From positions 1 through 6,001 of IMG/VR virus record IMGVR_UViG_2585427725_000002: a stretch of 6,001 bases of DNA; one strand, 5' to 3'. Below the pieces are notes generated by a model. It searched no databases, was not told where the DNA came from, and saw only the letters and a program-made list of their open reading frames with translations. Source of the DNA: a virus. Taxonomy: Duplodnaviria; Heunggongvirae; Uroviricota; Caudoviricetes. Shown here one piece after another: positions 1 to 6,001 of this stretch (position 1 is its first letter; each line of letters starts with the position of its first letter). Made by a program: the position numbers and the translations under genes.

Positions 1-2
1 CC

Positions 3-188
3 CTGCCGATATCTTTCAGCAATACCAATTATTGTGTTGTTGCATCGTACGATAATGCACGGTCAGGTGCGTCAACAATGGTTAGTTTTGCAGCATTACC
101 TGTTTCACCATCGCAATTTTCCCTGATGTCATCTGTGACTGAGCAAGGAATAAATCCTTTTGCTTACTGGATTGCTTTTGGAGATTGA
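3..188 (+). CDS. Alternative tail-fibre C-terminal variable segment, 3' end only (5' part off-window); promoterless in this orientation
   Basis: Frame 3 is open from the window edge to TGA at 186..188 (61 codons, ending ...INPFAYWIAFGD). It sits directly upstream of, and in frame with, the plus-strand tfa gene (TGA TAA then ATG at 192), which is the arrangement expected for the silent fibre/tfa pair of an invertible segment. Not in the ORF track because it lacks a start inside the window. Confidence 0.45.
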   Translation: MPISFSNTNYCVVASYDNARSGASTMVSFAALPVSPSQFSLMSSVTEQGINPFAYWIAFGD

Positions 189-191
189 TAA

Positions 192-611
192 ATGGACAGA
201 TACTTCTATTCACAAAAAGAAAATGGTTTTTTTACCGATTTAAATAAAGCACCTTCAGATGCTGTTGAGATAACCACGGATGAATGGCTATCACTACTGG
301 ATGGTCAGGATAATGGCATGAAAATAGTCAGCAATCAGGAGGGATATCCGGTTTTGACAGAGCAACCACCTTTATCAAAAGAAAACCTTATTGCATTGGC
401 AGAGTTGAAAAAAGGAAAACTTATTAATGAAGCCAACGAGCACATGAACAGCAGGCAATGGCCTGGTAAAGCGGCTATTGGTCGTCTGAAAGGTGAGGAA
501 CTGGCGCAATATAATTTGTGGCTGGATTATCTGGACGCACTGGAACTGGTTGATTCCTCCAGTGCGCCAGATATTGAATGGCCTACGCCTCCGGCAGTTC
601 AGGCCAGATGA
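192..611 (+). CDS. Tail fibre assembly protein (Tfa/gpG/U-like chaperone), alternative copy
   Basis: 139-aa ORF with ATG at 192. The C-terminus (LDYLDALELVDSSSAPDIEWPTPP) carries the conserved Tfa C-terminal motif and parallels the C-terminus of the minus-strand tfa. It is convergent with that gene and overlaps it at 583..611. Confidence 0.8.
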   Translation: MDRYFYSQKENGFFTDLNKAPSDAVEITTDEWLSLLDGQDNGMKIVSNQEGYPVLTEQPPLSKENLIALAELKKGKLINEANEHMNSRQWPGKAAIGRLKGEELAQYNLWLDYLDALELVDSSSAPDIEWPTPPAVQAR

Positions 612-1185
612 CATCCGGCGCGGTGCTGGTATCTGTTGCCGTCACCGCGTCAATGTAATCCAGCACAGCGTTAAGTCGGGTGGTTTCTGCCTGCGTCAGC
701 TTCCGTCCGGCCTGTAGTTTCAGTTGAATCAGACTAATGGAAGCCATTGCTGCATCAATAAGTGACTGGCGCAGTGCTTCTGCCGCGTCTACTGCGGCAT
801 TATGCTGTGCCTCAGTATCTGTCACCCATTTCTCACCATCCCATTTATCGTATGGCGTTAACGGGGCGATAGTGGTTGTATTATCAGGGTAATCACCCGG
901 AGCTGTGATTTCTTTTGATTCTCCTGTTTCGGTGCTAAAGACGATTTCACCGCGATGGTCTGGCACATATTCCCATGAGTTAAAATCTGCAGATCGGCAG
1001 ATTGCATAACCAGTTTTGTATGAGCCAGGAGCATCTAAACAGGAACATGCCGGAATGCCGACACCCACAGCAAGATATTCAGTTGATGTGAAAATATATT
1101 CCCGTGTTTCACCATCATAGTTATAAACCGTAATATTTCCTGCCTGGGTGGCGATAAATTCGTTATTTAATACAGCGTAATCCAT
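583..1185 (-). CDS. Tail fibre assembly protein (Tfa/gpG/U-like chaperone)
   Basis: 200-aa ORF with ATG at 1185..1183. The C-terminus (LDYIDAVTATDTSTAPDVIWPELPEA) is the characteristic Tfa motif. Its start overlaps the fibre stop by 1 nt (TAATG), indicating translational coupling. Confidence 0.85.
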   Translation of the reverse strand: MDYAVLNNEFIATQAGNITVYNYDGETREYIFTSTEYLAVGVGIPACSCLDAPGSYKTGYAICRSADFNSWEYVPDHRGEIVFSTETGESKEITAPGDYPDNTTTIAPLTPYDKWDGEKWVTDTEAQHNAAVDAAEALRQSLIDAAMASISLIQLKLQAGRKLTQAETTRLNAVLDYIDAVTATDTSTAPDVIWPELPEA

Positions 1186-2000
1186 TATGCAGCCCTCACG
1201 ATATAATTAAAGGCAATGTTTCGAGGACGGTTTTCGTTTGCAGTTGGAACAACTCTGGAAGCATCAAATGTTACTCGCTTTGCATAACCACCTTTAATTG
1301 AATCAGATGAAGCATCTCCGATGACGCTGGTTGTAAAAACGCCAGAATCAGAAGGATAGGTATTAAACCTGACATCTACTAATGCACCAATTATATTTCG
1401 AATGGCATCGCCCTGTGATGCAAGCAAGCTACGGTTAGTATCAATTCCTCTTCCGTCATCCCAGCCACGAATAAACTCACCACGTAAATCAGGTAATTTA
1501 TTTGTCGGGTAAGCCTTTGCCAGTTCCGGGTATTCTTCAGCAGAAAAAGCCGCACCATTGCATTTCAGCCAGCCTGTTGGCGGAGTGGCTGAAGGCCACG
1601 GAACAGGGACACCAACAGGTAATGCAGAGCCTTCTCCCAAACCAAGGTTTTCGAGAGCCGTTGGTACCGTGCCGTCCGATTTGATATCACCAAACGGATT
1701 ATTGCGGCTCAGGTATTCAACAGCAAACCCCGATCCCAGCAATTCAACAAAACCGGGCAGATCACCATTATCAAGCACATCCCGTTGCGTTTTATCACTT
1801 ACAAACTGGGCCAGAGCTGCAGCAATAAAGCTGGCCTGCCGAATAACCTTATTGACTTGCGCACTGGAGGCTTTCCCTGCTGTAAATCCGGATAAAAGCG
1901 CGGGCAACGCTTCCCATTCCTCCTGCGATATAACATTGGCATTTCGATCCGTTGCAAACGCTTTAAAGTCATTTTTCGCCATCAGAGTAATACTCCCCAT
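1185..2000 (-). CDS. Short tail fibre protein with a constant N-terminus and an invertible C-terminal part
   Basis: 271-aa ORF. The C-terminal part has a tail-collar-like stretch ([22 protein letters not shown]...[13 protein letters not shown]), it lies immediately upstream of tfa, and the crossover site falls in frame at codons A115..E123. The true start may instead be Met7 (ATG at 1982..1980), which gives a TGATG coupling with the upstream gene. Confidence 0.85.
1632..1657. other. Site-specific inversion crossover site (hix/gix/cix/pix-like) for a serine invertase
   Basis: The 26-bp sequence TTCTCCCAAACCAAGGTTTTCGAGAG has the imperfect dyad AAACC-NN-GGTTT with a central AA, closely resembling hixL (TTCTTGAAAACCAAGGTTTTTGATAA, recalled from memory). 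It lies inside the fibre ORF, where it encodes LENLGLGE. Confidence 0.6.
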
Positions 2001-2662
2001 GCTCCTACATCAAAACCACTGATGAATTCGTTATCCATATCAAAACCAAAAAATTTTGAGCCTTCCGATGGGGTTTCCACCGAAGGTGTTTCAATGCCAC
2101 CCGCCCATACCCCGGCAGCTTTTACTGTGAGATACCCCTGTTTAATTGCCGCAATTAACTCACGCGATACATCTGAAATATCAGTATCAGGAAAGACCCA
2201 GACCGATATCGTCATGTCCTGGTTATCGACTATCTGCATTCGCAGCCCGGATCCTGCTGTTGCAGAGTCAAGAATTGCCGGAAGCGAATCATTCCGTCCA
2301 TCCCAGTTATTAATCGCAATCTTCGCTTTAAGAATGACACGATAAGTTTCATCGCTGAGGTACATGTATCCGGAATCAGGATCGTATGGTCCCTGCCATA
2401 CCCCCTGATCATATCCAAGCCCGTCGGTATCCCAGCTGAAATAGACACCTGAGATAGGCTGGCTGACAACACGGCTACGTCCGATCCACAATCCCAGAAT
2501 GTCAAGTTGCACACCAACCGCAGAGTCAATATCAAATGCAGTAATCAGCCCTCTGGTGGCAGCCGCAACATCAATAAGCGGCCGGGTCATCAGATCAACA
2601 TGCGCAAGAAATTTAGGTTTGGTGGCGTGGTAGTTCGTGATTAGTTCGGTGTATTTGCTCAT
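1982..2662 (-). CDS. Phage tail/baseplate protein I-like (P2 gpI / Mu gp48 family, DUF2313-type)
   Basis: 226-aa ORF placed between the baseplate J-like gene and the fibre gene, as in P2 (J-I-H) and Mu (gp47-gp48-S). Its start overlaps the J stop as ATGA. The assignment is by synteny and size; family membership is recalled, not searched. Confidence 0.65.
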
Positions 2663-4211: not shown

Positions 4212-4963
4212 CAGTTTACCCCGTCGGTACTGCTTCCACCACGCTGAACACCACCATGAGTGTGTGTATCATCGATTGGCTTGCCATTAGCCTTCACGCT
4301 CCCCAAAAACTCAACAGCACCAGTGATTTTTGAAGCCACACCAGAAACCACAGACCCCACCATGCCCCCCATCCAGGTTAACAGGCCATGAATGGTTACT
4401 TTCTCAGAAAAATCAGCCAGAGGGGCAACCACATCAAGACCACCTGGAGCGACAATTTTAATTTTCCTGGTATCAGGATTAAGCTCAAAATAGGTGCTGC
4501 CGTCATCACTACGCAACTGTGTGGCACTGGTATTAATACCGCTAATCTTCCTTGCCTGCGACTGGGGACCGACAATACAAAACGCATCCGATAAATCATG
4601 CATTCTGTCATCGACCGACTCCTGTATCCCGCCACTCTGCCACCAGAAATCAATACAACGATCGGCAAAAATCACCAAACATTCATCACCGGCTTTAACT
4701 GGGAACGTTAGCGTACATCCTCCGCCGCGCGGGAATACCACTGGCACATCCACCAGCAATGGGTAATTTTTGGTAATGCGGTTGCCGTCATTATCCTTTT
4801 CAACCGAACGGATAGCAGGCTGCACAACTGCCGTCACCGCATCAGGATCGAATGACTGAATAATGCCAGGCAAGGCGACACGGATCTGGTTCTTTGTTGT
4901 TTCCCGTTCAGATTTGAATGTTTCGGCAAGGTCGCCGCTGCGGGTCTGGTCAGATACTGCCAT
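4211..4963 (-). CDS. Baseplate assembly protein V / central spike (P2 gpV, Mu gp45-like)
   Basis: 250-aa ORF with a GGAG ribosome-binding site 8 nt upstream of the ATG. It contains the OB-fold-like motif FPVKAGDECLVIFADRCIDFWW, comparable to the GDEvLVxF motif of Phage_base_V proteins, and a His-rich C-terminal tip (DDTHTHGG). Confidence 0.75.
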   Translation of the reverse strand: MAVSDQTRSGDLAETFKSERETTKNQIRVALPGIIQSFDPDAVTAVVQPAIRSVEKDNDGNRITKNYPLLVDVPVVFPRGGGCTLTFPVKAGDECLVIFADRCIDFWWQSGGIQESVDDRMHDLSDAFCIVGPQSQARKISGINTSATQLRSDDGSTYFELNPDTRKIKIVAPGGLDVVAPLADFSEKVTIHGLLTWMGGMVGSVVSGVASKITGAVEFLGSVKANGKPIDDTHTHGGVQRGGSSTDGVN

Positions 4964-5022: not shown

Positions 5023-5144
5023 TCATGAAACTCTAGCAGACTTTAGCTGTTCCCAGCGCTCAAAATAGAGTTCAGCAGCCTCGATTGCATCCTGTCCCAT
5101 CTCTTTCGAAACAGTCACATTCGTCAGATCATAGTCAGCTTCAT
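5023..5144 (-). pseudogene. 3' fragment of an unidentified gene interrupted by the IS2 insertion
   Basis: One minus-strand frame stays open from the IS2 junction (5144) to TGA at 5025..5023, about 39 codons ending ...ELYFERWEQLKSARVS. The other two frames stop immediately. The upstream part would lie beyond the IS2. Confidence 0.35.
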
Positions 5145-5185
5145 TGGATTTGCCCCTATATTTCCAGACATCTGTTATCACTTAA
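5145..5185. repeat. IS2 right terminal inverted repeat (IRR, about 41 bp)
   Basis: The terminal sequence matches the remembered IS2 IRR. The exact inner boundary is approximate. Confidence 0.7.
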
Positions 5186-6001
5186 CCCATTACAAGCCCG
5201 CTGCCGCAGATATTCCCGTGGCGAGCGATAACCCAGCGCACTATGCGGATGCCATTCGTTATAATGCTCGAACGCCTCTGCAAGGTTCTTTGCTGCCGTT
5301 AACCCGTCTGGTTTGGGCATGATACTGATGTAGTCACGCTTTATCGTTTTCACGAAGCTCTCTGCTATTCCGTTACTCTCCGGACTCCGCACCGCCGTGT
5401 TCTTCGGTTCAAGTCCCAACATCCGGGCGAACTGGCGTGTTTCATTAGCCCGGTAGCATGAACCATTATCCGTCAGCCACTCCACTGGAGACGACGGAAG
5501 ATCGTTGCCGAAGCGGCGTTCCACCGCTCCCAGCATGACGTCCTGTACTGTTTCACTGTTGAAGCCGCCGGTAGTGACCGCCCAGTGCAGTGCCTCACGA
5601 TCACAGCAGTCCAGCGCGAACGTGACACGCAGTCTCTCTCCGTTATCACAGCAGAACTCGAACCCGTCAGAGCACCATCGCTGATTGCTTTCTTTCACGG
5701 CCACTCTGCCTGTATGTGCCCGTTTCGATGGCGGTACAGCAGGTTTTCGCTCAAGCAACAGCGCATTCTGGCGCATGATCCGGTAAACACGTTTGGCATT
5801 GATCGCAGGCATACCATCAAGTTCTGCCTGTCTGCGAAGCAGCGCCCATACCCGACGATAACCATACGTGGGCAGCTCTCCGATAACATGGTGTATACGG
5901 AGAAGCACATCCGTATCATCAGTGTGACGACTGCGGCGGCCATCCATCCAGTCATCGGTTCGTCTGAGAATGACGTGCAACTGCGCACGCGACACCCGGA
6001 G
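5156..6001 (-). CDS. insD: IS2 transposase OrfB (InsD), N-terminus off-window
   Basis: The translation ([26 protein letters not shown]...WCSDGFEF...[10 protein letters not shown]...[14 protein letters not shown]...RCLEI, stop TAG at 5158..5156) shows the IS3-family DDE motif and matches IS2 InsD as I remember it. The track's leading M at 5995 is a GTG, an in-frame Val; the real start lies upstream, off-window. Confidence 0.9.

Follow-up and report, generated by a model that had tools for sequence, protein, structure and literature searches.

The e14 P segment of Escherichia coli K-12 (stfP-tfaP / tfaE-stfE, with pinE) has the same gene order as the locus described here. Its inversion has been demonstrated experimentally (PMC4272514, PMC12529663), occurs in culture (PMC4272514), and has recently been linked to the blocking of phage T2 adsorption (PMC12529663). 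The G segment of Mu (S-U / U'-S', gin) and the C segment of P1 (cin) likewise carry two tail-to-tail cassettes, each consisting of a fibre end and a chaperone gene, and, as in our locus, the serine invertase is oriented away from the segment and the crossover sites lie within the fibre gene. However, the chaperone genes of Mu (U/U') and P1 are separated by a 28-nt gap containing a GC hairpin with A-rich and T-rich flanks, and the encoded proteins end in ...WPQKPE and ...FPEQPE with no coding overlap. The chaperones of this type, the Tfa proteins, have been described as modular, the N-terminal domain, which binds the fibre, being variable and the C-terminal one conserved (PMC9608196).

The stretch of DNA analysed here, hereafter the window, is 6,001 nt long and comprises part of an invertible tail-fibre (host-range) segment of the Pin/e14 type, namely the right-hand 1.65 kb out of ~1.8 kb, plus fixed tail genes. 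The features on which the analysis is based are the following:

3..188, plus strand: stf', 3' terminus of the alternative variable part of the tail fibre, cut by the left window edge (Pfam Gp53-like_C, E = 5e-6)
192..611, plus strand: tfa', predicted TfaP-like tail-fibre assembly chaperone of 139 aa (ORF, Caudo_TAP match, annotation)
563..622, no strand assigned: imperfect inverted repeat/hairpin formed by the converging APDxxWP codons (RNA fold)
579..606, both strands: dyad core TGGCCT..CCGG..AGGCCA of 28 nt, the W-P-x-x-P codons in mirror register
583..611, both strands: tail-to-tail coding overlap of 29 bp, sequence CTACGCCTCCGGCAGTTCAGGCCAGATGA (read directly)
583..1185, minus strand: tfa, predicted TfaE-like tail-fibre assembly chaperone of 200 aa (ORF, Caudo_TAP match, annotation)
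591..594, both strands: palindrome CCGG, the last Pro codons of both chaperones (read from the sequence)
1185..2000, minus strand: tail-fibre gene of 271 aa (ORF; Pfam Collar domain, E = 2.5e-15)
1631..1651, no strand assigned: right crossover site, a 21-bp inverted repeat with core AAACCAAGGTTT at 1639..1650 (0.17 expected by chance)

The tail-fibre gene consists of a constant N-terminal part (~2000..1645) fused to a variable C-terminal part (~1644..1185); its homology to many phages stops at 1645-1656, and the crossover core at 1639..1650, which is of the Gin/Cin/Pin type (AAACCNNGGTTT-like), lies inside it. The partner site is located ~170 bp to the left of window position 1 and was identified in the locus of E. 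coli ATCC 43896 (L001), which is 99.9% identical over window positions 1..1654. There, it is found inverted at 4822..4833, identical in 20 of 21 positions, with the recombinase gene on one side and, on the other, the fibre fragment, whose CDS (matching stf') is annotated as a gp53-like domain-containing protein. The following characteristics of an invertible segment were observed for this locus: an inverted pair of crossover sites and two opposed cassettes of fibre C-terminus and chaperone, to which L001 adds the invertase, a serine recombinase whose gene lies immediately to the left of the part aligning with the window and hence outside the latter. A Pin homologue is present within 4 kb in 75 of the 83 loci with enough flank, on one side of the junction in 40 and on the other in 35; both orientations of the segment relative to pin occur among the loci, experimental inversion being reported for K-12 e14 only. 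Wherever a full-length Pin match was obtained (102 loci, e.g., L001 4188..4760), the pin gene faces away from the segment, lying to the left on the minus strand in 58 and to the right on the plus strand in 44.

Unlike the e14 remnant, the segment in the window sits behind a baseplate/tail-fibre module with DUF2612 and gpJ/gp47-like genes, the DUF2612, baseplate J, gpW-like, and spike genes being found upstream of the tail-fibre gene. These fixed tail genes show same-strand overlaps of 19, 4, 1, and 1 nt (1982..2000, 2659..2662, 3858, and 4211), the first one between the start of the fibre gene and the DUF2612 gene; short overlaps of this kind are typical of translationally coupled phage operons. 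The prophage is split by a copy of IS2 (IS3-family orfB, 279 aa, minus strand, 5156..5995), which takes up window positions ~5146..6001. Homology to intact prophages ends at ~5145, the tail module being severed upstream of the spike gene, and a 52-aa ORF (5023..5181, minus strand) that lies between the spike gene and IS2 and overlaps the IS2 end may be a remnant of the next tail gene.

Both convergent ORFs are tail-fibre assembly genes of the Caudo_TAP family (PF02413), for which a chaperone role is predicted; the plus-strand protein matches the family with E = 2e-25 and the minus-strand protein with E = 4e-32, and the scores of the two chaperones (89.7 and 111.5 bits) compare with a cut-off of 22.1. 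The plus-strand gene tfa' starts 3 nt past the stf' stop; its annotation is tail fiber assembly protein in L001 and tfaP in K-12. It is a member of the cassette that, in the present orientation, is unconnected to the constant part of the fibre gene. The minus-strand gene tfa, annotated as tfaE in both L001 and K-12, lies directly downstream of the complete tail-fibre gene, its start at 1185 being the end of the latter. The modular build described for Tfa proteins is observed here as well, as conservation is at a high level from ~433 to 870 and lower outside, and as the Tfa alignment has its conserved columns in the C-terminal part. Direct translation gives ...APDIEWPTPPAVQAR as the C-terminal end of the plus ORF (stop TGA at 609..611) and ...APDVIWPELPEA as that of the minus ORF (stop TAG read from 585..583), so that positions 583..611 are translated as (P)TPPAVQAR* on the plus strand and as (V)IWPELPEA* on the minus strand. 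The overlap of the two tfa 3' ends, as given in a preliminary description of this DNA, is hence exact in both coordinates and frames according to the ORF list and the direct translation. L001 carries the same pair of overlapping genes in its RefSeq annotation (5192..5611, plus strand, and 5583..6185, minus strand; overlap 5583..5611), and so does K-12 e14, where tfaP (1208132..1208545) and tfaE (1208517..1209119) share the same 29 bp (1208517..1208545; 4518..4546 of the retrieved locus, L005). The C-terminal sequences of K-12 are the same as in the window and the crossover-site core is of the same kind, whereas the N-terminal parts of the cassettes and the fibre parts differ, as in a mosaic. 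The overlap is, therefore, already known, being annotated in the K-12 reference genome; it is real, constrained, and ordinary. A PDB sequence search (phmmer) with both chaperones gave zero matches, so the role of the extreme C-terminus cannot be read from structure. Two extra ORFs, of 79 aa (375..614, minus strand) and 74 aa (493..717, plus strand), span the junction in other frames; neither is supported by a protein family, and both seem incidental to the frames that are open near the overlap.

The conserved C-terminal motif, which had been placed within the 29 bp in the preliminary description, is only in part encoded there. In an alignment of eleven diverse Tfa proteins, the terminal motif reads A-P-D-[IV]-x-W-P-x-x-P, with the two prolines of W-P-x-x-P invariant across all eleven, and maps to 564..593 on the plus strand and to 621..592 on the minus strand. 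The W-P-x-x-P parts fall inside the overlap, together with the non-conserved tails and nothing else, whereas the APD[IV]x part of each gene falls outside. The motif-coding stretches of the two genes have merely 2 nt in common, within the CCGG at 591..594, where P134 of the plus gene is encoded by CCG at 591..593 and P198 of the minus gene, an invariant column of the alignment, by CCG read from 594..592. In mirror register, the W-P-x-x-P parts of the two genes meet end to end (579..593 and 606..592), with TGGCCT and AGGCCA as the W-P codons of the two genes, and 18 of the 28 positions of 579..606 are self-complementary. Since the conserved residues of each gene mostly face the non-conserved tail of the other one, the conflict between the two frames is limited. 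A long perfect palindrome was also considered and ruled out, the arms being only ~48% identical over 200 nt.

The junction was then compared across 486 loci obtained through seven retrieval routes, in which tail-to-tail Caudo_TAP pairs were located with a profile of the C-terminal 70 residues. As the retrieval is skewed to E. coli-like prophages and includes many near-duplicates, the counts below are of non-independent events:

29-bp overlap: Escherichia, Shigella, and Kluyvera, 275 loci, representing 211 distinct sequence contexts
28-nt W-to-W geometry retained with a 20-bp overlap: Citrobacter (L044), 1 locus
genes 27-28 nt apart: segments of the Mu and P1 type, 64 retrieved with the Mu U query
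genes 26-37 nt apart: types of Mixta, Pantoea, and Edwardsiella, ~10
genes 75-295 nt apart: a few cases, scattered

The identical 29-mer is present in 223 of the 275 loci with the 29-bp geometry. A DNA pattern built on the flanks only gave 119 matches, all with exactly 106 nt between the anchors and none with an indel variant at the junction, and among 5426 complete E. coli genomes, 2512 had a match to a 201-bp query over the junction, with an identity of 95-99% in most of them. In Citrobacter sp. Awk 4 (L044, 3264..3283), one of the genes stops three codons earlier (WPTPPAQ*), which results in the 20-bp overlap; the retained 28-nt W-to-W geometry indicates an origin shared with the 29-bp overlap. 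The P2-like phage pro483, from a different phage family (Peduovirus), has an identical 29-bp overlap between ORF32 and ORF33 (locus coordinates 1665..1693) with an adjoining invertase, and thus the junction travels horizontally with the cassettes. In the non-invertible stf-tfa locus of HK97, the 3' end of tfa matches the minus gene of the window, and just downstream a 27-codon relic of the partner gene (L255 1201..1281, ...LDALELVDTSGAPDIEWPTPPAVQAR*) overlaps tfa by the same 29 bp. HK97 has neither an invertase nor a second cassette, its sib and att sites lie about 180 to 380 bp beyond the relic, and the relic resembles a vestige of what was once an invertible segment. Remnants such as this one, and the IS2 damage to the prophage from about 5146, are what could be expected if the overlap were a chance arrangement in one element, or if one of the ORFs were a decaying pseudogene whose frame is still open. 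Against this explanation, which we regard as the least credible of those considered and as highly improbable, stops and frames are intact in all 57 flank-anchored haplotypes and in the 275 loci, both proteins score far over the Pfam cut-off, and the same junction is found in intact phage genomes, pro483 among them.

Whether relatives share the overlap, a point on which the preliminary description had let the matter of chance depend, has a two-sided answer. All close relatives keep it, whereas in relatives of the Mu, P1, Pantoea, Mixta, and Edwardsiella types the chaperone genes are separated by intergenic sequence with a putative terminator. Every distinct spacer of 26-37 nt that was examined contains a GC-rich hairpin of 7-9 bp, flanked in most of them by an A-rich stretch on one side and a T-rich one on the other, which, judged by its sequence, is the form of a bidirectional intrinsic terminator. 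Examples are L002 3004..3031 (Mu), L003 6320..6347 (P1), L038, L041, and L051, in which the stems are kept while the loops vary. The window does not fall into this Mu G/P1 C subtype, defined by a 26-37 nt spacer with a hairpin, as it has no spacer and its own hairpin has no U-tract. The 29-bp overlap is probably a derived, lineage-specific state.

That dual coding constrains both genes, as had been proposed, is borne out by the sequence of the overlap and by its diversity. The codon phases pair as +1/-1, +2/-3, and +3/-2, and therefore the third position of each gene is the second position of the other. Out of 87 possible substitutions within 583..611, only one (G610A) is silent in both genes, compared with 18/87 and 24/87 silent ones in the single-coding 29-nt controls on either side. 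A first estimate of diversity was biased, since it had been anchored on the overlap, and it was redone with flank-anchored loci and with patterns outside the junction. For the 57 flank-anchored haplotypes, the mean per-site diversity is 0.017 in the overlap, 0.121 at flanking third positions, and 0.036 at first and second positions; the corresponding values with patterns away from the junction are 0.035, 0.239, and 0.122 (Mann-Whitney, p = 5e-7 against flanking third positions and p = 0.02 against first and second positions). Overlap diversity is hence ~7-fold under that of flanking third positions. The common variants in the overlap are silent in one gene and alter a non-conserved residue in the other (G587T, A200E in the minus gene; C595T, A135V in the plus gene; A596T, L197Q in the minus gene), the exception being C605A, which turns the conserved Trp 194 of the minus gene into Leu in 4 of the 275 loci. 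Given that no position is free in both frames, the overlap is shown to be nearly frozen once formed. Dual coding is not the sole source of conservation, though, because the single-coding stretch 567..582 to the left of the overlap is invariant, and the 29 nt at 623..651 are as conserved as the overlap in the least biased set.

The preliminary description had further suggested that the overlap could act as a recombination hotspot for the exchange of fibre/tfa cassettes. Every major combination of left and right cassette types is represented among the loci, so that exchange between cassettes is real. In addition, the junction is the most conserved bin of the segment, being the peak of the core from ~433 to 870, and the 563..622 fold has a stem of about -33 kcal/mol with z = -1.6 on the plus strand and z = -3.0 on the minus strand. 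All of this could be taken to mean that the 29 bp, or their hairpin, are a recombination hotspot or a structural signal standing in for the hairpin of the lost spacer, be it a terminator or a stem that stabilises RNA. Linkage, however, is low throughout the conserved 430..870 (r2 about 0.01-0.2), including between neighbouring bins on the same side, and there are no common informative sites between 566 and 667, so that the 29 bp cannot be singled out for breakpoints. Pairwise identity blocks were tried for placing the breakpoints and discarded, since their boundaries are largely set by two SNPs that are common (561 and 566). As for the structure, no U-tract was found after the 563..622 stem, the scan for terminator-like sites gave counts at the shuffled expectation, and no compensatory changes were detected in the stem, its 566/619 pair being broken in about a third of 65 haplotypes. 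On these grounds, the hairpin was rejected as a terminator, and the stem is judged to be an unselected by-product of the homology between the two genes. A hotspot or structural signal confined to the overlap is accordingly unlikely, and the part of the earlier suggestion that stands is the exchange of left and right cassettes, for which the wider coding region of the conserved C-terminal domain (~430..870), rather than the 29 bp, is a plausible substrate.

Two opposing promoters that give rise to overlapping antisense transcripts with reciprocal repression constitute an excludon, and with convergent excludons our locus has the 3' overlap in common. It could then be argued that the overlap is a selected antisense device, in which convergent tfa transcripts pair over their shared 3' ends and repress each other. 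In E. coli K-12, ExcludonFinder indeed lists the pair tfaP-tfaE as overlapping convergently at the transcript level (PMC12288877), and the junction lacks a canonical terminator. However, in an invertible segment mutual exclusion is already provided by the inversion of the DNA, and opposing promoters have no support: the silent cassette is devoid of a fibre N-terminus, the scan returned promoter-like sites at background level (4 found versus 3.6 expected), and pin, facing away in 102/102 loci, is unable to drive convergent transcription. Moreover, the two-strand RNA-seq signal of K-12 would also be expected from a culture of mixed orientation, since the segment inverts (PMC4272514), and the listing of tfaP-tfaE may partly reflect such cultures and not true convergent transcription. 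We therefore consider a selected excludon very unlikely.

Taken together, we estimate a probability of roughly 80% that the junction is the centre of a Pin/e14-type segment that lost its spacer by deletion, that the overlap was tolerated and subsequently frozen, and that cassettes are exchanged via 430..870. Under this deletion model, two alternative cassettes, each made of a variable fibre C-terminus and its own Tfa chaperone, would have stood tail to tail, and with the loss of a Mu/P1-type spacer and its bidirectional terminator the chaperone genes would have been pushed together in mirror register. Each frame would then run through the antisense of its partner up to a stop, gaining two codons in the minus gene and five in the plus gene, which would yield the overlap of 29 bp. 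We infer a single central deletion in the quasi-palindrome, removing both stops and the terminator, perhaps joining the CCGG motifs of two genes that ended in P-E (CCG GAR), an ending of this kind (CCG GAA) being present in one Pantoea relative. Such a deletion is consistent with the mirror register and with the sharing of one CCGG. Canonical tails after the W comprise 4-7 residues (PQKPE, PEQPE, PTPPAQ, PELPEA, and others) and that of the plus gene 9 (PTPPAVQAR), as expected if it has lost its own stop and now reads into the partner. No intermediate of the deletion was found among the present-day arrangements compared. The direction, spacer loss and not gain, is likewise inferred, from the tail lengths and from the broader range of taxa in which the spacer type is found.

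Once formed, the junction would have been inherited and also spread horizontally among prophages of Escherichia, Shigella, Kluyvera, and Citrobacter. The overlap would have come at a low cost, given that sense transcription would at any time be limited to the cassette linked to the constant part of the fibre and that conserved residues oppose non-conserved tails. The K-12 excludon listing (PMC12288877) counts against the silent cassette being untranscribed. Given the outward orientation of pin, transcripts continuing from the tail operon would enter this gene in sense. One could then envisage two transcriptional classes, a Mu/P1 class with a central terminator and an e14-type class in which the terminator was deleted and replaced by the overlap, with tail-operon transcripts running antisense across the silent cassette and then into pin in the sense direction; this is a speculative and rather improbable proposal.

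As a piece of sequence, the overlap is a clean natural example of antisense dual coding freezing a sequence (1/87 substitutions silent in both genes), and it is also a handy invariant landmark in the middle of a very mosaic host-range module, which could aid the typing or engineering of tail-fibre cassettes. If the read-through were true, it would couple both the expression of the invertase and the antisense silencing of the unused cassette to late/tail-operon transcription. The overlap alone matters little, and its contrast with the terminator-bearing arrangement of Mu and P1 is the sole point that may be worth an experiment.
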